Shown here: in pieces, positions 1 through 59,095 of the stretch
How the letters are laid out: every line of letters begins with the position of its first letter
Position numbering within the stretch: the stretch's first letter is position 1
Source: a phage
Strand: one strand, 5' to 3'
Sequence record: PZ452598.1
Length of the DNA: 64,000 bases
Translations under genes and position numbers: made by a program
The notes under the pieces: model-generated
Told to the model about the DNA's origin: nothing
Database searches by the model: none
What the model saw: the letters and a program-made list of their open reading frames with translations, nothing else

Positions 1-163
1 CATCCCAGTACGCAGTCTGCCAACAGATTTCAGGAACTTCTTTCAGAATATCTTCTTCTGTGCATTTATAACCATGCGCTTTAAATTTTTCAACAAGACT
101 TTCTGGAGTTTCACGAGATAAAGGAACATTCAGCATTTTTAAACGATTGATAAATGGGTTCAT
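1..163 (-). CDS. hypothetical protein, partial: start codon at 161-163, 3-prime end lies beyond the window edge
   Basis: Open minus-strand frame from ATG at 161-163 ([11 protein letters not shown]...) running off coordinate 1; ATGA overlap with stop of upstream ORF. Confidence 0.5.
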
Positions 164-489
164 TTAAACCATCCTTTAATACGCTGCCACAAAGTTTTCT
201 GTTGAGCTTTGTTGACGCCAATTGAGCGAATAACCGGTTGAGATTCCTGGAATTCTTTATAATCAGCAAGGTAAATTTCGTAAGCTGCATCCGTAAATGA
301 ACTTATCGCTGCCATAAAATTATTGCGAATACCTACTGGAGCATCTTTACTTTCACGAATAATCATGTATTTACCAGTCTTAATCTTTACGATAGTTCCA
401 AGATAAGCTCCATGGTACCAAATATCCCAACCCTCTTGAGTAGGTTCTGCGCAACGACGAAGTTCATTGACAATTTCTAACTTGTTCAT
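160..489 (-). CDS. hypothetical protein (109 aa), downstream of motA
   Basis: ORF track; AGGA Shine-Dalgarno 8 nt upstream of ATG at 487-489. Confidence 0.6.
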
Positions 490-499
490 TATTTATTCC

Positions 500-1135
500 T
501 CACAGTTCAGATGCTACAGTGATTACAGCTTCAATGTTTTCTGCCGAGCGTTTAATGTCAAGATACACATTACCGTTTTTAGCGATTTTACATGACATTC
601 CGATGTCAGTAAATTTCTGAATATGATGTTCCATCATTTTGTATCCAAAAATTCGCATATTTCCATTGTTATTAATTTCAAAATTACGAATTCCGTTAGT
701 GCGTTTTTCTAAAATAGCAAGATAATTACTACGATAAATTTCAACCTTTTTAAGAACAAATCCATTTTTATCTAAAAGTTTTAACATGAGGTCTTTATCT
801 TCTTCCATATCGGAAGTAATCTCGCGAGCTTTACGAGTTGCTCGTTTTTTCAGCAGTTCCGGAGCATTTTCCTGTGCATATAAAGTTGCTGCATTTGAAA
901 TAATATCCTGAGCTTCACCAGTAATGATTAATCCATCACCAGATTTCTCCACCAGGCCTTTTTTAATCAATACCCCAATATTACTATTAACTACTGCGTT
1001 ACCTAAATCTGGATGCACCTCACGAACTTCTGCAGCTGTAATGAAATCTTTCTTAGCAATGGTAATTAAAATCGTAGCAGTTTTTTCATTCAGAACATCG
1101 TTAGAAGCTTTGATGATGTAAGTTACTTTAGACAT
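500..1135 (-). CDS. motA: MotA, activator of middle transcription (211 aa)
   Basis: Length and position immediately downstream of gene 52 as in T4; sequence recognised from memory, not database-verified. Confidence 0.8.
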   Translation of the reverse strand: MSKVTYIIKASNDVLNEKTATILITIAKKDFITAAEVREVHPDLGNAVVNSNIGVLIKKGLVEKSGDGLIITGEAQDIISNAATLYAQENAPELLKKRATRKAREITSDMEEDKDLMLKLLDKNGFVLKKVEIYRSNYLAILEKRTNGIRNFEINNNGNMRIFGYKMMEHHIQKFTDIGMSCKIAKNGNVYLDIKRSAENIEAVITVASEL

Positions 1136-1169
1136 TTTCTAATCTCCGTAATTCTGTATCAGTAGTTGA

Positions 1170-1208
1170 TAGTTGTATAGTACCACAGTATGCTTTGGTT
1201 GTAAACCG
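1170..1208 (-). promoter_or_regulatory. early-type promoter (sigma70-like, -35 GTTTAC at 1201-1206) driving motA
   Basis: Minus-strand GTTTAC, 17-nt spacer, GGTACTATAC -10-like element; same cassette recurs upstream of other early genes. Confidence 0.5.
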
Positions 1209-1224
1209 TTTTGTGAAAAAATTT

Positions 1225-1257
1225 TTAAAATAAAAAAGGGAGAGCCTCGGCTCTCCC
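1225..1257 (-). terminator. intrinsic terminator: 8-bp GC-rich hairpin followed by U-run on minus-strand RNA
   Basis: GGGAGAGC-CGAG-GCUCUCCC then UUUUUUAUUUU on the transcribed strand, between gene 52 cluster and motA promoter. Confidence 0.6.
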
Positions 1258-1262
1258 TAAAA

Positions 1263-1412
1263 TTACTGCATGACTGTGATAACTGTCATGATAACACGTT
1301 GAATTCCGAACGCAAGAAGACCTCCTGCTACGGCTGGAACAACGCCTAAACCCGCCAGTAAAATGCTACCAGATACTAATGCAGCGCTTGTAATACCAAT
1401 GAATGGACTCAT
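1263..1412 (-). CDS. small hydrophobic membrane peptide (49 aa)
   Basis: Manual translation MSPFIGITSAALVSGSILLAGLGVVPAVAGG...; ATGA overlap with gene 52 stop; below the 60-aa ORF-track threshold. Confidence 0.5.
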   Translation of the reverse strand: MSPFIGITSAALVSGSILLAGLGVVPAVAGGLLAFGIQRVIMTVITVMQ

Positions 1413-2737
1413 TTGATTTCCTCTAAATCTTTGGTGTATTCAGTAACTACATCAGTAGTTTTCCAATATTCGTTTTCTTCTTTTTTAGCTTTAGCTTCTT
1501 CAGCAAGTTTCTTTGCTTCATCGGAAGTCATATGAAAAATATTCATTCCAACTAGTTTATCAACATAAGAAGAATACATATCGATTTTCGAAAGTTCTTC
1601 GGTCAGTTCTTTACGAGTTTTACCCTGTACAACAATTTCACCTGAAATTACTTTCTTAATGAAATGTGCTTTGGCAAAGGCTAAACGAAAAGCTGACTCA
1701 GTTTCTTTAATTTTGTTATCAATTCGTTTTTGGACATAAGTTTTACGAACTTCAACAAAGTCTTTAATTAAATCAACTACGTTATCGTAAACTTGCAGCT
1801 TTCCTTTCTCATTAATAACCGTAATATTCTGGGAACGACGCTCAATCAGTCCGAAGTCTTTCATAATTTTTGCATGGCGTTCTTCTTCGTTATCGCTCAA
1901 AGAATATTCTTTGCGGAATTTAACTTTGAAGCCAAAACCATGCTCACCACAAGCATCATCCCATGTAATGAAGCCTTTATCTTCAAGTGGGTCTAAGATT
2001 TTACTCACATAAGTTTCACGATCATACTTATACGGAATCTCAGTGATATGCATTTGAGTTCGTGAAGTAAACTTATATGTTCCACGAATTTCATATTGCC
2101 CATCAATTTCAACGACTTCACCACGAAATTCTGGGAATTCTACTTTCGGTTTAGTTACTTTCTTTCCTTGAAGAGCTTGCAGTACAGCTTTCTTGACAGA
2201 AGAAACACTATGAGGAAGAATGTAAGTTGCATAACCAGTTGCAATACCGGAAACGCCATTAAGAAGAACAGTAGGAATAATAGGCAAATAGAAAGCAGGC
2301 GGAATGTGTTCTTTATCTTGATGTACCGGAGCATATTCAGTATCTTTATATACGTTATAGAAATTTTTACTTACACGAGCAAAAATATAACGACTTGCCG
2401 CTGCCTTTTGGACAGTACGAGAACCAAAGTTTCCTTGACCATCTAACAGAGGAAAGTTATTATTCCAAGTATTAGCCATCAAAGCACCTGCGTCTTGTGC
2501 AGAGTTTTCACCATGATGATATCCAAGGTCCGCTACACCACCTGCAATAGAAGCGAGTTTGTGAAACTTATCTTTATTTCCTCGTGCCAAATCAAGAGCT
2601 CGAGCAATAACAAATCGTTGAACTGGCTTAAATCCATCAATCATATTTGGGATAGCACGATTTTCAACCGTGTACATAGCATAAGCCAATGCTTCATTAT
2701 CAATGATACTTTTTAAATCGCGATTATTCAGTTGCAT
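1409..2737 (-). CDS. 52: DNA topoisomerase II medium subunit gp52 (GyrA-like breakage-reunion subunit, 442 aa)
   Basis: 442-aa ORF; length and sequence match recalled T4 gp52; partners with gp39/gp60 elsewhere in window. Confidence 0.9.
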   Translation of the reverse strand: MQLNNRDLKSIIDNEALAYAMYTVENRAIPNMIDGFKPVQRFVIARALDLARGNKDKFHKLASIAGGVADLGYHHGENSAQDAGALMANTWNNNFPLLDGQGNFGSRTVQKAAASRYIFARVSKNFYNVYKDTEYAPVHQDKEHIPPAFYLPIIPTVLLNGVSGIATGYATYILPHSVSSVKKAVLQALQGKKVTKPKVEFPEFRGEVVEIDGQYEIRGTYKFTSRTQMHITEIPYKYDRETYVSKILDPLEDKGFITWDDACGEHGFGFKVKFRKEYSLSDNEEERHAKIMKDFGLIERRSQNITVINEKGKLQVYDNVVDLIKDFVEVRKTYVQKRIDNKIKETESAFRLAFAKAHFIKKVISGEIVVQGKTRKELTEELSKIDMYSSYVDKLVGMNIFHMTSDEAKKLAEEAKAKKEENEYWKTTDVVTEYTKDLEEIK

Positions 2738-3573: not shown

Positions 3574-3633
3574 ATTAATTTCCTCTAAATTATTTTCTAC
3601 TCCAAGGCCGCATGAATACACACGGCCATTAAA

Positions 3634-3849
3634 TTACTCGTCGCAGTCGACGCTCAATTCCCAAAACTCTTCTACAGTATAAGTTTCAGTATCATTTTCA
3701 ATACAGAAACGTTCATTACTATTATTTGCTAAAGTAGCATTAACTGTCATTTTTTCGCTAGTGCTCTTAAGAGGTGAAATACGAATTAACTGATCACCGT
3801 TATCTAAACAAAAAATTTCACCAACTTTTACATCTTTAAAACTTTTCAT
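3634..3849 (-). CDS. hypothetical protein (71 aa)
   Basis: ORF track; in the ndd-denB small-gene block. Confidence 0.5.
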   Translation of the reverse strand: MKSFKDVKVGEIFCLDNGDQLIRISPLKSTSEKMTVNATLANNSNERFCIENDTETYTVEEFWELSVDCDE

Positions 3850-3964
3850 AATTCACCTCAAGGAGTATAAAATCCAAATGCAGTTGTTGACCATCCCATC
3901 CAATATGGAAAATTTACACCAATGTAAAACATAAGAATATAAAACCAACCGCTCAGCAAATTCA

Positions 3965-4183
3965 TCATTTTACACCATTCCAAATTGTTTCAACCACGGA
4001 TTTTAAACCATTTTGATGAATATCCATTCCTACTACCGCCATCAAATAAATTCCAACTACAACTGAACCTAAGGCAAAAATCAGCATGAAAATGAATAAA
4101 GCCGGAAAAATATTATCGAAAAACCATTCAATAAATGTAAAAGCACTGCGTTTACGCTTCATATTTTCCTCACATAAATCCAA
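3965..4183 (-). CDS. hypothetical small membrane protein (72 aa)
   Basis: ORF track; hydrophobic segment FPALFIFMLIFALGSVVVGIYLMAV. Confidence 0.5.
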   Translation of the reverse strand: MDLCEENMKRKRSAFTFIEWFFDNIFPALFIFMLIFALGSVVVGIYLMAVVGMDIHQNGLKSVVETIWNGVK

Positions 4184-4636
4184 AGTAAACGTTTAATACA
4201 TCAATCATTAAAACGATTGGGAATATACTCAAAACTATTAGTATTATAACTACATTCCATATAGCTTTAATAATCTTTTTCATTTTCTGTTCCTCCATAG
4301 TTGATAGGGTAATAGTACCACGGAAGAACAGTCTTGTAAACAACTTTTTTAAAAATATTCGTAATAAATGTGAATACCAACTACTACCGCTGAAACCTGT
4401 GCAACCCACCACGCACAAGCAATAAGTACAGAATTCAAAATTTTCATAATAACCTCATTACAAAAGTAAATGTTAAACAAATTACTGGAATACTAATTAA
4501 CCAAACAAAACACCACCATAATGAACTCATAGTTCAATCTCAGCGATTTTCATTTTATTCTCCAAATCCGTATCAGTAGTTGATAGTTGTATAGTACCAC
4601 GGTCCTTGTGGTATGTAAACTGTTTTGTGAAATTTT

Positions 4637-5194
4637 TTAAATGGAAAGATACCATCCGTTGTAGTTGCTTTTTCTTACAACTTTACGAAGGTCTTCTCTG
4701 TCACCGATGAACTTCGGAGTGTACTGGATGACACCTGGATGAATTTCTTTAGTGTTGAATATAATTATACAGTCAGCGACTTGATGATTTAGAATGGGCC
4801 CTAGATTTATTCCAGAACCATATGGATACTCTCCGCTGCATCCCGTTGTTACCGAAATCCAACGTGAGTCAGTTTGATGTGTCTTAACTTCTACACGAAG
4901 CCCGCAGTATTTTGGATGAGCCAATACATCCCATGCATATGTGTACGGATCATCGACATCCTCTTGGCCTTTATTGACATATCCACTCAACCAATCTGCC
5001 ACAAAAAACTCTGCGTACACAGCGATACGGCATCTTTCGATAACTTCTGCCTTATCTTGATTTGGGTTTTGTTTTAAAGAGTATCTTGCAGTATCAGCAA
5101 TTTTGACCTTCATTTCACAGGTCAAGTCACTGTTCGATAGGGTAAATGTCGGAATCTGAAATAGTCTCTGTAACCCAGGATTCGTTTTCTGCAT
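4637..5194 (-). CDS. denB: DenB, endonuclease IV (185 aa)
   Basis: 185-aa ORF at the position and length of T4 denB. Confidence 0.75.
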   Translation of the reverse strand: MQKTNPGLQRLFQIPTFTLSNSDLTCEMKVKIADTARYSLKQNPNQDKAEVIERCRIAVYAEFFVADWLSGYVNKGQEDVDDPYTYAWDVLAHPKYCGLRVEVKTHQTDSRWISVTTGCSGEYPYGSGINLGPILNHQVADCIIIFNTKEIHPGVIQYTPKFIGDREDLRKVVRKSNYNGWYLSI

Positions 5195-5249
5195 TTAAAC
5201 TTTCCTTTATGTCGGAATCACCGATATTCATATAAATCATAATTTCTCT

Positions 5250-5275
5250 TAAAACAAAAGGGCCGAAGCCCTTTA
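5250..5275 (-). terminator. UUCG-tetraloop hairpin followed by U-rich tract (terminator-like)
   Basis: AAAGGGC-UUCG-GCCCUUU then UUGUUUU on minus-strand RNA, between the 64-aa ORF and denB. Confidence 0.45.
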
Positions 5276-5277
5276 TT

Positions 5278-5472
5278 TTACTTGAATTGTGCAATTCTTT
5301 TCTCTAGACATTCAGCATAAGATTTCATTGAGATGAACTGCGAAAGTAGCAGTTCTTGCTCAACTGCGCTAACTGTTAGAAACTTTGCGCTTTCTAAAAA
5401 TTTGCTCAGTGCATTAATTTTGAGCATTAATTGATCGTATTCTTCTTTTACTCGTGCTTGATAACCTAACAT
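5278..5472 (-). CDS. hypothetical helical protein (64 aa) lying where rIIB would be expected
   Basis: ORF track; preceded by TAAGGAAAATT-ATG translation initiation region; flanked on both sides by GGGCUUCGGCCC hairpins. Confidence 0.55.
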   Translation of the reverse strand: MLGYQARVKEEYDQLMLKINALSKFLESAKFLTVSAVEQELLLSQFISMKSYAECLEKRIAQFK

Positions 5473-5500
5473 AATTTTCCTTAGTTAAGGGCCGAAGCCC

Positions 5501-6928
5501 TTATTTAAATTGTTCAGTAACGTCTTCAACTACTTCATATTGGCAGGTACGCATTTTAGCATCGTTGTAATCAATCGGAATTGATACTACATCGCGAGGA
5601 TGAACTTTAACTTTTACAACTCGGCTGGTTGAACTACCAAAGTGACGAATATAAGATTTAGAACACACATGCAAACCACGAGAACAAGTTTGTGTATCAT
5701 CGTCATTCACACGAGTACGTGGCATTTTAACTACTTTACCCGGACTGTTATCAAAGGTGTTTGAGTGACAGTCAAAGTAATTGCTGCGAACTACTTTCCA
5801 AGCATAGAAGTAACCATCTTCTGTAATTTCAATATCGTTTGCTACCAAGAAATCAAAGAGTCGAGATACCGCTTTTTGGCTTGGGTTTTCCAACAGATTT
5901 TCCAAGAACGGAAAATAAAATTCAAAGTTTTCGCCTTTTTCCATCGAGTCAAGAATACGATCAACCAAACCAGACCGCAATTCAATATTTTGATAGAACA
6001 AGCTTCCACCTTCAATTCGAACATCGCCGGAAATATATTTTTCAACAGCACGACGAACATTAATTTTTTGTGCCGCTTCTTCCAACTTATCCGCTACAAG
6101 CAGATTAAGAATTTCCTGGAAGTTTGAATGAGTATTAGGAGTTGCGTTATAAGTTACGCCATCAACAGTAATTGAAATGAATTTTTTAGATGCATTCCAA
6201 ATAATGTCAGATTTAGCAACTGGAGCAATAACTGCATCGCTATTAACTTTAACTGTAATATCACCGCTAATAGTCATCAAAATCCGGAAAATAATCATTT
6301 CGCGGTCAAGACCATTAATGATAGCCAAATCTTTGAACGGTCGCATGATATAAGAAACTTCATAAGCAAAGTTTCTAAAGTCTTTTTCTTCAACTGGAAC
6401 TACGATTTCAATACCAGTTTTATCATCTGGACCCATTTCTTTTACGAATGTAGGTTTAATCTGTGGACCATCACCATCCATGTAAGCTACATAACCACGA
6501 ATTTCACCTTTATGATACGAAGTAATACTAAACGTATCAGTATAACTAAACGGAGATTTAGAACCTAAACCAAATCCGCCAATAAAGTCATTAGATTCAG
6601 CTTTAGATGAACTGAAGTATGAATTATACAACCCAGGAGAATTATCATCACCTTGAATATCAAAATCACTCATACCCGGACCAAAATCTCGACAAACAAA
6701 TCGTGGGTCTAAACGTCCAGGAACTTGTATGATAAATTTTTCAGGATTTCCATTAAGTGCATGAGCATCAATCATGTTAGTAATCAATTCACGGACTACT
6801 GCGCGAATCTTGTTTGTATACAAATCAGATGACAGAATTTTAAATACTTTAGGAGATGCTGTGATGCTAAATGCTTTTGATTTAGAACCATTACCAAGAA
6901 TTGTTTCTTTTTCAGTGGTGATAATCAT
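5501..6928 (-). CDS. rII-locus protein (475 aa): rIIA-like N-terminal GHKL ATPase domain; atypical length, possible in-frame rIIA-rIIB fusion
   Basis: GHKL motifs [26 protein letters not shown] in first ~125 aa; sits at the rIIA position next to rIIA.1 and gene 60 but is about 250 aa shorter than canonical rIIA. Confidence 0.7.
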
Positions 6929-6938
6929 AATTTCCTCA

Positions 6939-7142
6939 TTAATTCATATTACGCTTAATAACTTCAGCAACTTCTAGTAGTTCATCTTTAGTTGCGGTGT
7001 CGGATTGAATTTTATCTCTAATATCTTTAAAGCGGGTTTTAAATTCTTCGGCTTCTCCCATATCGAAAAAGCGTTGAATGATTCTATATTCTCGATGAAC
7101 TGCTTTATCAAAAAGTTCTAAATTTACTTTATATGATTTCAT
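6939..7142 (-). CDS. hypothetical protein (67 aa), rIIA.1 position
   Basis: ORF track; between gene 60 and the rII ORF as T4 rIIA.1. Confidence 0.6.
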
Positions 7143-7165
7143 TTCAATATCCTCATTTGCCCAAT

Positions 7166-7199
7166 TAATTATACCACATCCTTGTGGTAAAGTAAACTA
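7166..7199 (-). promoter_or_regulatory. early promoter (-35 GTTTAC 7192-7197, -10 TATAAT 7168-7173) for rIIA.1 and the rII ORF
   Basis: Consensus GTTTAC, 17-nt spacer, G-TATAAT on minus strand. Confidence 0.6.
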
Positions 7200-7729
7200 C
7201 TGGCTCATCCATTCTTTACGAAGGTCAGCATTATCTCCCATGAGCATTTCAAAAAGCTCTTTCCAGTTCTCAGGAAGTTTAACAACATCATATACTGGGT
7301 TTTGAATCATCTCACGATATTCAGATTTTTCCAAAGAGCCAAGTCCCTTAATATAACGGATGCTATGTTTAGGTAGAGCATCTTTGGCACTCTCATATTC
7401 AGCGACTGTATAAAACCATTCTTGTTTTTTACCGACCTGAGCGATGATTACAGGAGTTTTGACAAAGCGAATTCGTCCTTGCTCAAACAATTCTGGCCAA
7501 TTACTAAAAAATCCGAGCAGAGAAGGATAAATAGAACCTAATCCAATAATCTCTTAATTATGAGGTATTTCTATAGATAGCCCGAAGGCTATCCATCGTG
7601 ATCTGCGTCTGTCATAATAGCGACATTCGCATAGTTCATTGAAGAGGATTTAATAGAACGACGAACATTGTTCTGCAATTTATATTTTTTCATATCAACG
7701 CTAGAAGAATCAATTTTTACAAATTTCAT
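7197..7729 (-). CDS. 60: DNA topoisomerase II small subunit gp60 (160 aa) translated across a 50-nt bypassed coding gap
   Basis: Codons 1-46 (7592..7729) end at take-off GGA before UAG; translation resumes at 7541 after landing GGA; 46+114 = 160 aa; sequence matches recalled T4 gene 60. Confidence 0.9.
7542..7591 (-). other. gene 60 translational bypass element (50-nt coding gap)
   Basis: GGA-UAG-CCUUCGGGC hairpin ... landing GGA; explains why the ORF track splits gene 60 into 7589..7780 and 7197..7490. Confidence 0.9.
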
Positions 7730-8528
7730 TATACACCTCATAGAACTTTTCATCAGGAATCCAACCGCGTTTAAATTCATTAAATGCTCGGCCGAATAAT
7801 TTTGAATTCACAGTTATATTATTAACTGATTTCCATTTAGCAACTCCCGTTCGTTTATAATGATCGGGGTCATATTTCGTGACGTACCATTCATATAAAT
7901 TTGGTATTAATTTTACAGCCTCTGGATTTGTCGCTGATTTATTATACCATGGTTTCGCTTTTTCAAGTTCAGCTGCTTTTGCAGTAGCAGCAACAGTATT
8001 TCCAATACCAACTAATTTTTCAGTTTTAATGCGTGGATCATTAACATGAAGACGAAAAACTTCGCCCTTTTCATTTTTAAAGCATGTCATGCCTTTAATT
8101 CCAGGAAGCTTAACACCTTTATTAACACCGCACCATTCCTTTGGGTTAAATGATCCTTTAATTAATAAGGCGCATTTACCCGATTTAATACTTCTCATTA
8201 AAACTTTATCTTTCATAAAGTTTTTTGACCATTCAGATACTGCTCTTTGATGGTAAATTCTAGCAATTTCATATAATTTACTAGAACGTAAATATTTTTC
8301 AGTGTTTAACATTCTATTCATCGCATATGCCATTTCACGATTACGATGAATTTTATATAGTAGAAAATGTGCTAAAAAGTGTTCACGAAAAGTCAGTTTC
8401 ACCAAATTTTCTTTATCATCAGAACCTCCCATTGATCTTGGAAGGATATGATGAATTTCACCCTTAAATTTAGAAACGCGGGTTTTACCCCGCACTATTA
8501 AGTCATTATAGATTTTTTCGTAATTCAC
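7710..8528 (-). CDS. mobA: HNH homing endonuclease-like protein (272 aa) inserted between genes 39 and 60
   Basis: HNH signature HHILPRSMGGSDD...NLV; position as T4 mobA; overlaps both flanking genes. Confidence 0.75.
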   Translation of the reverse strand: MNYEKIYNDLIVRGKTRVSKFKGEIHHILPRSMGGSDDKENLVKLTFREHFLAHFLLYKIHRNREMAYAMNRMLNTEKYLRSSKLYEIARIYHQRAVSEWSKNFMKDKVLMRSIKSGKCALLIKGSFNPKEWCGVNKGVKLPGIKGMTCFKNEKGEVFRLHVNDPRIKTEKLVGIGNTVAATAKAAELEKAKPWYNKSATNPEAVKLIPNLYEWYVTKYDPDHYKRTGVAKWKSVNNITVNSKLFGRAFNEFKRGWIPDEKFYEVYNEICKN

Positions 8529-53662: not shown

Positions 53663-54585
53663 TTCAATACCTCAATAGCATTACGTAAACCATTTGCTTT
53701 GGCGGTTAAATCCTTAAGAACTTTAGTATGCTCTTCAATCTGTTTTTCAACTTCAATCAAACGGGTACTGAGATATTCGCGTTCTTCTTTCATAGTATCA
53801 TTCCCATGATTGGGCTTTGGCGTAGGTTTAAATTTATTAGGGTCCTTTAACTTAATAACAACTTTAGTTTCAAACAGTGAAAGACCATAATTCGTATTAT
53901 CATCAAAGGATTCAACTACGTCCATTTTAGACAATAACGTACGAAGATTATAAGTCAAAGAACGAATCGTTTTATTATGTTTATTAGCTTCACATGGTTT
54001 CATATATGGAAGATTTTTATATATTTCATGCGGAGCACAAACAATAATTAACAATTCAAATGGTCCATTCTGTGATGATGGAATGAATTTAGCCGTAACC
54101 CAATCTTTTACATTTACATTAATAGTACGATCATCGCCATGACAAAACAGTCTACGAGAATGCTTAAAAAGCATATTCACATTATTATTAAATTCGTGTG
54201 AAAACTCACTGGCAAATTTTTCTTTACTATCTTTAGAAAACCATTCTTCTAAATAAGTTCTTTTCACGTCGTTAATAATATTAAATGTAACAACATTATC
54301 ATTTGATACATTAGTCTCAATGTAGCTTGGATACATAAATTTTTTAACATTATTAACAGCTATCACAGAAGATAGTAATCGGGAACGTTTGAACCACTCG
54401 AGCAAAGAACCAAGAGAATGTGAATACGCATTTTGTGTATCTTTACAAATATGGTTTTCCCATCCAATATAGTCTAAAAAATCACGAAGAATATTATTGA
54501 TTACTTCTCTATGTCCTTTCTGATAATCACGATGTTTAGTAATAAGACTGTCAAAATAATCAATATAATGTTTACGAGTTTTCAT
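53659..54585 (-). CDS. hypothetical protein (308 aa), coiled-coil C-terminus; paralog family member 1
   Basis: ORF track; C-terminal heptad-like tail. Confidence 0.6.
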   Translation of the reverse strand: MKTRKHYIDYFDSLITKHRDYQKGHREVINNILRDFLDYIGWENHICKDTQNAYSHSLGSLLEWFKRSRLLSSVIAVNNVKKFMYPSYIETNVSNDNVVTFNIINDVKRTYLEEWFSKDSKEKFASEFSHEFNNNVNMLFKHSRRLFCHGDDRTINVNVKDWVTAKFIPSSQNGPFELLIIVCAPHEIYKNLPYMKPCEANKHNKTIRSLTYNLRTLLSKMDVVESFDDNTNYGLSLFETKVVIKLKDPNKFKPTPKPNHGNDTMKEEREYLSTRLIEVEKQIEEHTKVLKDLTAKANGLRNAIEVLK

Positions 54586-54639
54586 GTTCTTCTCACTTGG
54601 TTAATGATTTATACTCCGAGCCATCCTTGGCTTTAAATT

Positions 54640-55692
54640 TTACTTAATTAACTGCAAAGCTTGTTCTAGACGATCAAGACGATTAACGGATTCTTCCCAA
54701 ATCTTTTTAGCCTGCTCATATTCTTTCTGCGCTTTATTAGAAATTTCTAGAACTTCTTTATAAGCTTTTTCTAGTGCAATAACTTCTGGACGAATTTCTA
54801 TCGGTTCAGGTGAATCATCAAGACATTCCATTAGTTCCTCAAGGGTAGTTTCTTCTTTAGGAGTATTCACAATTTCATCACATTTTTGTTGGTAAATTTC
54901 TTTACTAGTAGGTGAATAAGCACATTTCACTTCACGAAGGCTAATTACGAGTTTATATCCTTCCCAACCGCATATATTCTTAAAAGGATATGTATGAATA
55001 TTTTCTACTGTTTCCATACAAAGTAATGCGGTCTCTAATTGACGAGTTATAGTGCTAGCAATTGAGAAAAATTTATTAATATTCTTTTGGTTAGTTTCTG
55101 GTGTAAAAAATCCATAATTCACAAAAATAGATACTTTATTTTTATCAAGTTCATATTCTTTTATGATAATCATATCAGAAGCCAAAGGATGAATTTGACG
55201 ATAATCGCCATAACATAATTTAGAAGCTGATTTTAGAATTTGCTTCTTGAAAAGTCTGAAATTACTAATCCAACGACGAGTAAAAATATTCTCAGGGTCT
55301 TCTTTATTATTGAGATGATAAGAATTAACATCACCGAACCAATTATATCCTACTACATCTTTAGTTCGTTTAATTTCTTTCCCAAAATTACCAAGAATAT
55401 CCCGATTAACCAAATATGAAAGAAGACGAGACTCTTTAAAGGTTTTCTTGATAACATCTTTATCTACACGGCTAGAAATTTTACGAATTTCATGAATAAA
55501 TTTAGTAGAAGAAACAATACTTGCATCAACACTATTGAGCCACTGATTGATAATAGAAAGAACGCTATTTTGGCCAAACATCGGTATAGCTTTATCATCA
55601 ATAACGCTATTGAATGATTTGATATATTCGTTACGAGTCATATTAATCTCCTCAGTAGAAAGTAAGAACATTATACCACATCCTTGTGGCAA
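54640..55692 (-). CDS. hypothetical protein (350 aa), paralog family member 2
   Basis: Shares FRLFKKQILKSASKL-type segment and coiled-coil tail with neighbours. Confidence 0.6.
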   Translation of the reverse strand: MPQGCGIMFLLSTEEINMTRNEYIKSFNSVIDDKAIPMFGQNSVLSIINQWLNSVDASIVSSTKFIHEIRKISSRVDKDVIKKTFKESRLLSYLVNRDILGNFGKEIKRTKDVVGYNWFGDVNSYHLNNKEDPENIFTRRWISNFRLFKKQILKSASKLCYGDYRQIHPLASDMIIIKEYELDKNKVSIFVNYGFFTPETNQKNINKFFSIASTITRQLETALLCMETVENIHTYPFKNICGWEGYKLVISLREVKCAYSPTSKEIYQQKCDEIVNTPKEETTLEELMECLDDSPEPIEIRPEVIALEKAYKEVLEISNKAQKEYEQAKKIWEESVNRLDRLEQALQLIK

Positions 55693-55702
55693 AGTAAACT
55701 AG
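55668..55702 (-). promoter_or_regulatory. early promoter (-35 GTTTAC 55695-55700, -10 TATAAT 55670-55675)
   Basis: Consensus early promoter on minus strand. Confidence 0.55.
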
Positions 55703-56721
55703 TTCAGTGCATTTAGTGCATTGTTCAGTTTAGAACGTTGCTTTGTCAGATTTTGAACCCTTGACTGAGCTTGTTCTAACGCCTTTTCAGCTTCTAGCAC
55801 TTCATTGGTCGCTTTAACTAATTCAGCATCTACTGCCTTAAGAGACTTCTCAATCGCATCCGCGTGCCATTTTTCAACAGGTTTAAGACTTGGATTTTCA
55901 ACAGGAAGAAAATTCACTTTATTGAATTTCCATGCATCTTTATTACCTGAGCTATACATCCAAAATTTAGGATCGTTTGATAAGTAATTAGATAAATTTA
56001 AGTTATCTTGCACTTCTTGCTTTTTCTCTTGTGTGACTTCGTCCTTTCTCAAAAATTCATATTTAAATGAAACGATCATATCAAGTTCATATGATGTTGT
56101 ATCTAACTTAAATCGTTCAAAACGAGGTAAAATCTTAGATTGAACAGCAGCAACAACATCCATATACTTAAATGCTTCTGTCAACTGCGATTTAAGGCAT
56201 TCGCAAATTGAAAGAGAATTTTTTGTATTAGGTTTAAAGCTAATTCGTGCAGTTCTATTATTTTCTTTTAACGGTCTTACTTCCATCTGAAGAGTATAAC
56301 CATCAAATTTCAGATTCTTTAAGTTAATGTCAGAGCCTTTTAATCGACTAGCAGTAGACAAAATTTGCTTTAATTGTCTACGGAACAGAGCAATAAATCT
56401 CCATTCAATACGATAATGATTTGGATTGAAAAATCCAGATGATAAATCGACCTTACTTTGACCAACGCCTTGAACAAATAGAGGATTTTTATAATCAATA
56501 GTTTTACAGAAATCGGTGAGCTGTTCACGAGCAGTCATTTGAGTAATATACCCTGCTTTACTAAAATTACGCACCCATTCACTGCTATTCGTATACTTAA
56601 AGTGATGAATAACACGATTAACTTTATCAGGGTCTAAATTATTTTCACACAAAAATGTCATAACATCACGAGTATAGCTGGCATTACGAACCATATCTTC
56701 AATTTGAGAACGAGTTTTCAT
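55699..56721 (-). CDS. hypothetical protein (340 aa), paralog family member 3
   Basis: Segment ALFRRQLKQILSTASRL and coiled-coil tail. Confidence 0.6.
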   Translation of the reverse strand: MKTRSQIEDMVRNASYTRDVMTFLCENNLDPDKVNRVIHHFKYTNSSEWVRNFSKAGYITQMTAREQLTDFCKTIDYKNPLFVQGVGQSKVDLSSGFFNPNHYRIEWRFIALFRRQLKQILSTASRLKGSDINLKNLKFDGYTLQMEVRPLKENNRTARISFKPNTKNSLSICECLKSQLTEAFKYMDVVAAVQSKILPRFERFKLDTTSYELDMIVSFKYEFLRKDEVTQEKKQEVQDNLNLSNYLSNDPKFWMYSSGNKDAWKFNKVNFLPVENPSLKPVEKWHADAIEKSLKAVDAELVKATNEVLEAEKALEQAQSRVQNLTKQRSKLNNALNALN

Positions 56722-56729
56722 GGTGTTCC

Positions 56730-57644
56730 TTAAGATTTAAGTAAATCAACAATTTTAATTAACTTTTCACGCTCAGATTTAGCTTTACTACTCAATCCAG
56801 ATAGTCTGAAAATTTCATCATCATATTGTTGAATAGAAATATTCAGCTCTTCAATTTGCTTATTAAAATAATCAATTTGTTCAGAATGTTTTTCGTTACT
56901 ACGAACTGGTACAGGTTTTGTAGGCAATTTAGTTGAACTGGATTCATTCGGGCGATAAATTAAAATGCAATTTGAACCAATCGGGCATTTAGCACCAGAT
57001 GAATATTCTAACGTTCCAGCTTCTTTTAAAACTTCAAAAGCTAAACAGAGATGATGCCCCATATTAACATAATCAGTAGAGCGAGCTCTGATGTAATAAT
57101 CATCTCCACGAGTGCTAAATTTAAAGCATTTAAGGTCTTCTGTATTATTAGTTTTAAAAATCATTTGTTTATCTAGACCTTTAGCCAATCGAGCACCTAA
57201 TGCTAATAATCGTCGTTGATTTTCCCACAAATCTGCGATCATTTGGTCAAATGATAATTTCGGCATTAGCCGACCATAAAGGTCATATCCTTTATTATAA
57301 TTGCGAAGGATTTCACTCGCATTAATACGAGACAACGCTCCAATTTTATTAAGGGCTTTCATAATACGATTAGATAAACTCATTCCAGACCCGTTTGTTC
57401 GCTGTAAATGTTTTTCTAATCCAAATCCAATATCAACTTTAAATTTATCTAAAATTTCAGCATGAACATCTCTGTCAATAACATTCAAATCCAAAGTTGG
57501 GTTAAATCTATGAAAAAATTTATCTGGCTCTCCACGACGTAAAACAGTCCATTCATTCATCATTTTTTTATTAACTAAAGATTTAATTACTGCGTTGACA
57601 TTATTAATTACTACTGACATATTTTCCTCACTCAATTTTACCAA
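56730..57644 (-). CDS. hypothetical protein (304 aa), paralog family member 4
   Basis: Segment LWENQRRLLALGARLAKG and coiled-coil tail. Confidence 0.6.
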   Translation of the reverse strand: MVKLSEENMSVVINNVNAVIKSLVNKKMMNEWTVLRRGEPDKFFHRFNPTLDLNVIDRDVHAEILDKFKVDIGFGLEKHLQRTNGSGMSLSNRIMKALNKIGALSRINASEILRNYNKGYDLYGRLMPKLSFDQMIADLWENQRRLLALGARLAKGLDKQMIFKTNNTEDLKCFKFSTRGDDYYIRARSTDYVNMGHHLCLAFEVLKEAGTLEYSSGAKCPIGSNCILIYRPNESSSTKLPTKPVPVRSNEKHSEQIDYFNKQIEELNISIQQYDDEIFRLSGLSSKAKSEREKLIKIVDLLKS

Positions 57645-58029
57645 TTACGCGGAATAAGATTGAACAGACTATATAAGTACCACATATAGATTGAACTAAT
57701 GCCATTCCAAAGAACCAAACAATATTATCAAACCATGTCTGTTTTACGTCGAAAGGACGTAAACTTACAGTAATATTATCACCTTTTTCTATTGAAGAAT
57801 ACATCTCTGGGGAAATATATTCACTAAATCTATAACCGTCTTTGAGTTCATATACAGCAATAAACGATAAACTAGACCCCTTTCCTTGAGTTCCTGTAAG
57901 GGTATTAACTACAGTAACATCATAATCTTTATAATGCATATAATCATTAATTGCGTAATAACCATATGCAATTACTATACATAAACAACATATCAATAAA
58001 TTCAATCTTTTAATTATCAACTGTTTCAT
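57628..58029 (-). CDS. membrane protein (133 aa)
   Basis: Two hydrophobic helices at N and C termini. Confidence 0.55.
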   Translation of the reverse strand: MKQLIIKRLNLLICCLCIVIAYGYYAINDYMHYKDYDVTVVNTLTGTQGKGSSLSFIAVYELKDGYRFSEYISPEMYSSIEKGDNITVSLRPFDVKQTWFDNIVWFFGMALVQSICGTYIVCSILFRVIGKIE

Positions 58030-58084
58030 AATAATCTCAATTAAAAGGGCTTAGAACCATTATACCATCCTTGGTATAAAGCGG

Positions 58085-58612
58085 TTATGCGAGTACCGTA
58101 TTTAACCGTTCTTCAAACTTCCGAAGAGTGTTCTGGCGTTCAGCTCTTTGCTTTTTGTAAGTTTCAATACGCTCTGAAATGAGAGTGTATCGTTCATTTA
58201 CTGATTCTTTCATAAAATCAGGAATTTCACGAGAAGCTTTAATCTCGTCAAATTTATCAATAACAGCTTGCTCTTCAGCAATTAAGTTATCATACATCAA
58301 AATATCTTTCTTGATGAACTCAATATCTTCTTGAGTTACACGAGATAATTTAGATGCTTTATCCTTTTTGTACTGTTCGTTAGTATCACGAGACCAGTGT
58401 AATGTACGATTTTTATTCGTATTCTTGTAAATTTCTACAATACCAATCTCATCGATAATAACGATCCAATTCCAACGGGATTTGTAAATTTGTCCTCCAT
58501 TAACAGTGATTTCACCTCCGATTGAGATGTCATTAAAGAACTTGCTTTGTGCTTCTGATTTAAATTTACCATCGTTGTAATTTACCAGGTTGAAAATATC
58601 TTTAGCGTTCAT
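58085..58612 (-). CDS. hypothetical protein (about 175 aa from Met at 58610-58612)
   Basis: ORF track 58085..58657; start moved to Met with GGAGGA SD downstream of promoter. Confidence 0.55.
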   Translation of the reverse strand: MNAKDIFNLVNYNDGKFKSEAQSKFFNDISIGGEITVNGGQIYKSRWNWIVIIDEIGIVEIYKNTNKNRTLHWSRDTNEQYKKDKASKLSRVTQEDIEFIKKDILMYDNLIAEEQAVIDKFDEIKASREIPDFMKESVNERYTLISERIETYKKQRAERQNTLRKFEERLNTVLA

Positions 58613-58637
58613 TTTGTGTTCCTCCGTAGTTGATAGT

Positions 58638-58672
58638 TGTATAGTACCACAGCTCAAACGGAAAGTAAACCG
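58638..58672 (-). promoter_or_regulatory. early promoter with conserved leader cassette (-35 GTTTAC 58665-58670)
   Basis: Same GTTTAC...GGTACTATACAACTATCAACTAC module as other copies. Confidence 0.5.
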
Positions 58673-58679
58673 GTAAAAT

Positions 58680-58704
58680 GAAAAAAAGTCTCCCGAAGGA
58701 GACT
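58680..58704 (-). terminator. intrinsic terminator
   Basis: AGUCUCC-UUCG-GGAGACU hairpin followed by UUUUUUU on minus-strand RNA. Confidence 0.65.
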
Positions 58705-58708
58705 AATG

Positions 58709-59095
58709 TTATTCGAGGGAAAGAAGATACTTACTCTGGTAAAACATTCCAGTAATATCATCTATCGTGCTTTGGATGGCTGGAGGCATTTCTTTATAAA
58801 TGCTGTTAGATTGGTCTAGTATGCGATCAATCATTTTAATTGTGTCGGTAGGAAGTTTACTGGCATCTGGAATTGAAGGCGTGTATTTTCGACCAGAATA
58901 CCCCAAATATTGCTCACCAAATTTATCAATCAAATCTGGCAACTCGGAAAAAATAAAATCGTATGCTTTGTGTCTAGCATAACTTTTAGTTTCAAAATGT
59001 GCAGAATGAAAATAAGCTTGTGCAGCCATTAATAAACCTAAGTATTCATCTGCCTTTGAAGGTTTTCCACTTTGTGAAAAGTCGCTGAATTTCAT
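58709..59095 (-). CDS. hypothetical protein (128 aa)
   Basis: ORF track. Confidence 0.55.
   Translation of the reverse strand: MKFSDFSQSGKPSKADEYLGLLMAAQAYFHSAHFETKSYARHKAYDFIFSELPDLIDKFGEQYLGYSGRKYTPSIPDASKLPTDTIKMIDRILDQSNSIYKEMPPAIQSTIDDITGMFYQSKYLLSLE

Follow-up and report, generated by a model that had tools for sequence, protein, structure and literature searches.

The 64,000-nucleotide stretch of phage DNA analyzed here (sequence record PZ452598.1; the whole stretch is called the window) is phage T4, and the subject of this work is its rII locus, which in wild-type T4 is made up of the separate genes rIIA and rIIB. In the T4 reference NC_000866 the order of genes is denB, denB.1 (64 amino acids, aa), rIIB (312 aa), rIIA (725 aa), rIIA.1 and gene 60. 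In the window, the list of open reading frames (ORFs) shows two minus-strand ORFs, of 475 and 64 aa, between an intact denB and an intact rIIA.1 (Table 1); the wild-type layout with separate rIIA and rIIB is absent, and 1,700 bp are gone. A preliminary description of this DNA, made from the sequence by itself, had placed the same two ORFs in surroundings that resemble T4 and had estimated that 1.5–1.7 kb were missing, and both points hold: apart from the two lesions in rII, positions 3600..8500 are identical to the T4 assembly OZ035787.1, and the measured loss is 1,699 + 1 = 1,700 bp. Over its full length the window differs from OZ035787.1 by four substitutions, one single-base indel and two large deletions, and by nothing else. 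When a 2.9-kb probe of the locus is aligned to OZ035787.1 it matches at 99.9%, as two pieces across 4,601 bases.

The 475-aa ORF is a fusion of the two rII genes. It consists of rIIA residues 1–210, followed by eight shifted residues that are encoded by rIIA DNA read in the phase of rIIB, followed by rIIB residues 56–312, a composition that is brought about by two lesions: a deletion of 1,699 bp and the loss of a single nucleotide at rIIA codon 211. When these two lesions are applied to the T4 reference the product is exactly window 5501..6928 (1,428 nt). PHROG profiles divide the protein in the same way, with RIIA matching fusion residues 1–211 (E 2e-109) and RIIB matching 228–475 (E 9e-145). 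The tail that the preliminary description had tentatively assigned to rIIB 56–312 is exactly that segment, at 100% identity, and the GHKL motifs that it had reported in the N-terminal part correspond to a weak HATPase_c_3 signal at residues 43–143 (E=1e-4, just under the Pfam cut-off), which full-length rIIA gives as well. A search of solved structures by sequence with the fusion protein returned no match. The length of the ORF, taken alone, would suit a natural short rIIA homologue of a T4-like phage whose rIIB lies elsewhere; that reading is barely credible and was rejected, as the two halves are 100% identical to different T4 genes with a sharp breakpoint between them, and as, in each of the 629 related phage records, the match to the locus is broken into two or more pieces that lie apart, with no record spanning the junction.

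Table 1. Features of the altered rII locus and related sites (positions are those of the window unless T4 is named; codons and residues as in the text).
Feature	Position	Strand	Basis
denB (endonuclease IV), intact, 185 aa, left edge of locus	4637..5194	-	ORF list, T4 comparison
Twin GGGCTTCGGCCC hairpin, past denB.1	5257..5274	-	
denB.1, native 64-aa T4 ORF outside the lesion, Pfam crAss001_48 (E 4e-19)	5278..5472	-	T4 annotation, T4 comparison, Pfam
15-nt TAAGGAAAATTATGT region	5459..5473 (denB.1); T4 1..11 with 168900..168903 (rIIB)		
Native GC-rich hairpin, GGGCTTCGGCCC core, just past the rIIB stop codon	5486..5503	-	
rIIA'-'rIIB fusion ORF, 475 aa, 53.6 kDa	5501..6928	-	ORF list, residue-level dissection, PHROG
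rIIB codons 56–312 and stop, identical to T4; fusion residues 219–475	5501..6274	-	
Deletion junction, 7-nt microhomology ACTATTA (coding strand), single copy in the window	6268..6274	-	base-level alignment
Eight shifted codons, MIIFRILM, fusion residues 211–218: rIIA DNA in rIIB phase	6275..6298	-	
1-nt deletion site, codon 211	6296..6297	-	T4 coding-strand TT (AA at 1556-1557) versus single T in the window
rIIA codons 1–210, identical to T4 rIIA, with GHKL-type ATPase-like region (residues 43–143)	6299..6928	-	
rIIA.1, intact, 67 aa, right edge of locus	6939..7142	-	ORF list, T4 annotation
Early-promoter-like site by rIIA.1	7196..7168		
Second-deletion junction, 17-nt direct repeat GTTGTATAGTACCACAG, -10 region of two early promoters	58636..58652		

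Fusions of this kind are familiar from rII genetics. The classic one, r1589, is a deletion of Benzer's that joins rIIA to rIIB and reportedly served Champe and Benzer, and also Crick, Brenner and colleagues, in their work. Its defining features are that the right part of A and the left end of B are missing and that one continuous frame remains. The present allele has this layout: the divide between the genes is spanned, with loss of the stop codon of rIIA and of both the start codon and the ribosome-binding site of rIIB; a single frame opens at the start codon of rIIA and continues without interruption to the stop codon of rIIB; and the loss from rIIB is confined to residues 1–55, with 56–312 kept at 100% identity. 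That the N-terminal part of rIIB is dispensable is a result of classical rII genetics. Several Pfam helix-turn-helix (HTH) families match rIIB residues 7–50, all slightly under their cut-offs, and this region is lost in the fusion; the profile matches suggest that the classically dispensable B1 start of rIIB is a separate HTH-like module. For HTH_7 the score on T4 rIIB residues 7–50 is 23.6 bits against a cut-off of 23.8. What the fusion keeps is the ATPase-like N-terminal module of rIIA and the conserved C-terminal region of rIIB, and what it lacks is the HTH-like module of rIIB and 70% of rIIA.

The larger lesion was located by BLAST against the joined T4 reference, which gives two colinear blocks that lie 1,700 bp apart in T4 and meet at window 6262..6274. 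The deleted segment comprises T4 168739..168903 plus 1..1534, that is 1,699 bp across the rIIA/rIIB divide. At the base level, the coding strand follows rIIA up to ...GATG ACTATTA and then rIIB from ACTATTA GCGGTGAT..., so that the junction in the window reads GATGACTATTA joined to GCGGTGAT, with GAAATGATT 22 nt upstream. The heptamer ACTATTA is present in T4 at 1528..1534 (rIIA) and at 168732..168738 (rIIB), and the repeat extends imperfectly as ACTATTA(G)CGGTG; the 1,699-bp deletion was formed at this 7-nt direct repeat. Deletions of T4 at short homologies of 2–10 bp are documented (PMC9391042). The breakpoint proposed in the preliminary description (6272..6277, codon 218/219) was correct, with rIIB residue 56 being fusion residue 219, and the microhomology that it had suggested looking for there is the ACTATTA heptamer.

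The deletion takes with it rIIA codons ~220–725, the rIIA stop codon (TAA), the intercistronic ribosome-binding site and rIIB codons 1–55. Inside the deleted segment fall both TAAGGAAAATT-ATG of rIIB and a MotA-box-like site that is accompanied by a -10 element and stands 156 nt upstream of rIIB; rIIB has been described as being under a middle promoter (PMC9697503). Since the start codon, the Shine-Dalgarno sequence and the MotA-box-like middle promoter of rIIB are all deleted, the rIIB part would be made only by way of the rIIA start, and the fusion is thus predicted to be translated from rIIA start signals only. The deleted DNA, rIIA 220–725 and rIIB 1–55 have no copy or match elsewhere within the 64-kb window.

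The 1,699-bp deletion does not by itself produce a fusion. Alone it is out of phase, and the frame from the rIIA start would read ...D-D-Y-TAG, giving an ORF of 219 residues that closes at TAT-TAG on the junction. The fusion is in frame because of the second lesion, the loss of one T that converts GAAATTGATT of T4 to GAAATGATT in the window, 22 nt upstream of the junction repeat, and restores the phase of rIIB. In the phase of rIIB, the nearest stop codon upstream of the junction is 126 nt away, which confines any rescuing -1 to ORF nt 527–662; the observed -1, at ORF nt 632/633, lies inside this permissive stretch. It is the sole small indel in 64 kb relative to OZ035787.1, and the chance that a lone random indel would fall in the permissive stretch is ~135/64,000, or roughly 0.2%. 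Because no other small indel is present in the 64 kb, the -1 is unlikely to be noise or coincidence, and sequencing noise was judged an unlikely source of it. Had the crossover fallen just a few bases farther on in the imperfect repeat, a simple in-frame deletion of 1,700 bp would have resulted; this did not occur, since the window retains the rIIB-specific G. The preliminary description had proposed an in-frame fusion of the r1589 class: the class stands, while the simple in-frame deletion does not, as the additional 1-nt deletion is needed. Its other suggestion, that two lesions are present, is borne out in number, although the lesions (the 1,699-bp deletion and the -1 at codon 211) are other than those it pictured.

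Those imagined lesions depended on the 64-aa ORF, which was thought to stand where rIIB belongs and, alternatively, to represent the start of rIIB following a native junction. Neither applies, as wild-type T4 has the 64-aa gene denB.1 between rIIB and denB (annotated in T4 at 167743..167937), with the same position and length. Window 3600..6274, denB.1 included, is 100% identical to OZ035787.1, and relative to the older NC_000866 denB.1 has one difference, at codon 3. DenB.1 is annotated as hypothetical in T4 and is a clear member of PF21825 (crAss001_48-related protein) and of PHROG 774. The likeness to a native junction is nevertheless real and derives from a 15-nt initiation region, TAAGGAAAATTATGT, that rIIB and denB.1 share in wild-type T4. 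This identity, before and into the 64-aa ORF, is what speaks for the reading that places a native rIIA/rIIB-like junction at the end of the 475-aa ORF and takes the 64-aa ORF for a truncated start of rIIB. Its probability is nonetheless negligible and it was rejected, given that in position as well as sequence the 64-aa ORF, flanks included, is the same as T4 denB.1, that its family is another one, crAss001_48 (E 4e-19), and that the N-terminal 55 residues of rIIB have no tblastn match anywhere in the window. The shared initiation regions, together with twin GGGCTTCGGCCC hairpins past rIIB and denB.1, constitute repeats that could themselves mediate deletions.

Taken together, the window very probably carries a mutant T4 rII locus in which two lesions, the 1,699-bp deletion and the -1, have given an rIIA-rIIB fusion of the r1589 class. 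The preliminary description was right to see a laboratory-type rII mutant rather than wild type, and the joining of rIIA to rIIB can now be followed residue by residue. By analogy with classical rII genetics the loss of rIIA function is expected to result in rapid lysis and in failure to grow on lambda/RexAB hosts, while the 257 C-terminal residues of rIIB probably keep B-complementing activity, as in r1589. Several points weigh against this interpretation. The 7-nt repeat is not special, as 306 7-mers are common to rIIA and rIIB; the window covers 64 kb of a genome of ~162 kb, so that an intact rII copy elsewhere, for example in a duplication, is possible; and the -1 could in principle be a consensus error at the breakpoint, which is less likely than selection or a complex event. 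With regard to function, the B activity of this fusion is something that we infer, and the protein could be inactive or unstable on account of its eight shifted residues and of the far greater loss from rIIA.

How a compensated pair of lesions arose is a separate question. By restoring the phase, the -1 suppresses the effect of the out-of-phase large deletion, and it is possible, although we hold this tentatively, that it was selected as a second-site suppressor, an A- B- deletion later having regained the phase of rIIB. The setting could have been selection for B with A supplied in trans, as in rII partial-diploid (duplication) crosses, or selection against a harmful truncated product. The location of the -1 within the 135-nt permissive stretch (~0.2% of the window), its status as the only small indel, and the amber codon with which the large deletion alone ends at the junction are all in keeping with such selection, as is the fact that the same imperfect repeat could have given a simple in-frame product, which is not what is present. 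A second, 4.8-kb loss of non-essential genes in the same genome (described below) would likewise fit lineages that accommodate extra DNA; compensating deletions of that kind are documented (PMC9391042). However, B function alone does not give growth on K(lambda) and ordinary plating exerts no selection for it, and no duplication is seen in the 64 kb.

The proximity of the two lesions, just 22 nt apart, and the joining inside the imperfect repeat ACTATTA(G)CGGTG would also be accounted for if both came from one complex event, such as error-prone synthesis during microhomology-mediated joining, that was kept since its product was in frame. This is unlikely: a template for the lost T was sought in the rIIB partner sequence and none was found, rIIA sequence is unaltered over the 21 nt that separate the lesions, and the second large deletion of the same genome has a clean junction. 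In either case the allele resembles the Crick-Brenner frameshift/suppressor pairs in rIIB, in that a phase error is corrected nearby through a short stop-free shifted stretch, and in both systems the position of the lesions is limited by stop codons in the shifted frame. Unlike those pairs, the first phase error here is the junction of a 1,699-bp deletion, and the shifted stretch lies in the remnant of rIIA.

The allele may also be compared with r1589 itself, which shares the deletion across the A/B divide, the reading of the rIIA start into the C-terminal part of rIIB and the loss of the rIIB start, and by analogy the expected A-minus phenotype with B activity and Rex sensitivity. It differs in that a second lesion, the -1, is needed here for the frame, and in that 70% of rIIA is removed. 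A sequenced T4 that came from a culture collection as wild type has been reported to have its rIIA and rIIB ORFs fused and to form no plaques on rexAB hosts (PMC8594841, S5 Fig), and according to the figure legend its authors likened that stock to the sketch of r1589 by Benzer and Champe (PMC8594841, S5 Fig legend). This 'rIIAB fusion' T4 of the BASEL paper is like the present allele in that its rIIA and rIIB ORFs are joined, the likeness being one of description in that figure (PMC8594841). A search for evidence that DSM 4505 is the mutant stock turned up no such statement. Spontaneous deletions of T4 at short direct repeats, in rII studies cited in PMC9391042 and in the evolved clones of that paper, are similar in their short-homology junctions (here 7 nt at rII and 17 nt at the second deletion) and in the loss of non-essential DNA; in those clones the whole rII locus is deleted along with an amplification, whereas the present allele retains a precise fusion ORF and the window shows no amplification.

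There is an appreciable possibility, though one falling short of even, that a T4 stock in distribution carries Benzer's r1589 and that this is the allele seen here, in which case r1589 would be a double lesion of 1,699 bp and 1 nt. The layout agrees with the classical layout of r1589; the rIIB endpoint at codon 55/56 removes just the HTH-like N-terminus, which fits a dispensable start of B; and the fusion reported from a culture collection was compared, in the legend cited, with the r1589 sketch (PMC8594841). On the other hand, the searched literature contained no published deletion endpoints for r1589, and neither junction nor protein appeared in the sequence collections searched, so that no match labelled r1589 was available: a 301-nt junction probe found no record spanning the junction among 50,697 phage records, an exact 33-nt junction pattern had no match in IMG/VR or the JGI metagenomes, and the 475-aa protein, looked up exactly among ~15 billion proteins and 153 billion gene positions, had none either. 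Moreover, the loss of 70% of rIIA goes beyond what textbook sketches of r1589 depict, and r1589 was isolated without selection for B activity, which makes it a priori improbable that a compensated double lesion arose there unselected. The combined proposition, that the window shows, at the nucleotide level, how r1589 or a direct sibling out of the classical rII collections is built and that the 'in-frame' fusion is an out-of-phase 1,699-bp deletion rescued by a nearby -1, is somewhat doubtful. If true, it would imply past selection for rIIB function or against a truncated rIIA, or else a complex one-step event, and the second large deletion could mark descent from rII duplication (partial-diploid) lineages.

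Whatever its origin, this sequence is not wild-type T4, which calls for caution from anyone taking it as a T4 reference. The genome is expected, by analogy with known rII mutants, to lack rIIA function and so to be excluded by lambda RexAB; it encodes a 53.6-kDa rIIA-rIIB hybrid, and the ten genes from nrdC.9 to mobD.5 are gone. At least one culture-collection stock of T4 supplied as wild type has been reported, in the figure cited above, to carry an rII fusion (PMC8594841). For the history of phage genetics the window offers a base-level picture of an r1589-type fusion, in which the HTH-like N-terminus of rIIB is lost and the GHKL-like domain of rIIA is kept, with the frame held by a deletion/frameshift pair that obeys the phase rules of Crick and Brenner. 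No new biological mechanism is implied; it is a known kind of laboratory allele, of which the compensated frameshift is the one curious detail.

The second large deletion of this genome, which has no relation to the rII lesions, removes 4,837 bp, T4 53926..58762, with the loss of nrdC.9, nrdC.10, nrdC.11, mobD, mobD.1, mobD.2, mobD.2a, mobD.3, mobD.4 and mobD.5. The -10 regions of two early promoters hold the junction, and nrdC.8 is consequently placed behind a hybrid promoter; this junction was present in no phage record searched. Among the T4 records searched, two substitutions are private to this genome, V662A in gp43, the DNA polymerase (GTT to GCT, window 32634), and G98R in SegA (GGT to CGT, window 28669). 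At window 14706 and 57937 the sequence agrees with NC_000866 and differs from OZ035787.1, and the variants at these positions are therefore private to OZ035787.1 and not to this genome. Between gene 39 and gene 60 the window has mobA as an intact HNH-type ORF of 272 aa (7710..8528, minus strand). In NC_000866 the same gene is split into 60.1 and a 37-aa 'defective' mobA owing to ~11 single-base differences; the window agrees with OZ035787.1 here, and judged from these sequences the old reference looks to be in error in splitting the gene.

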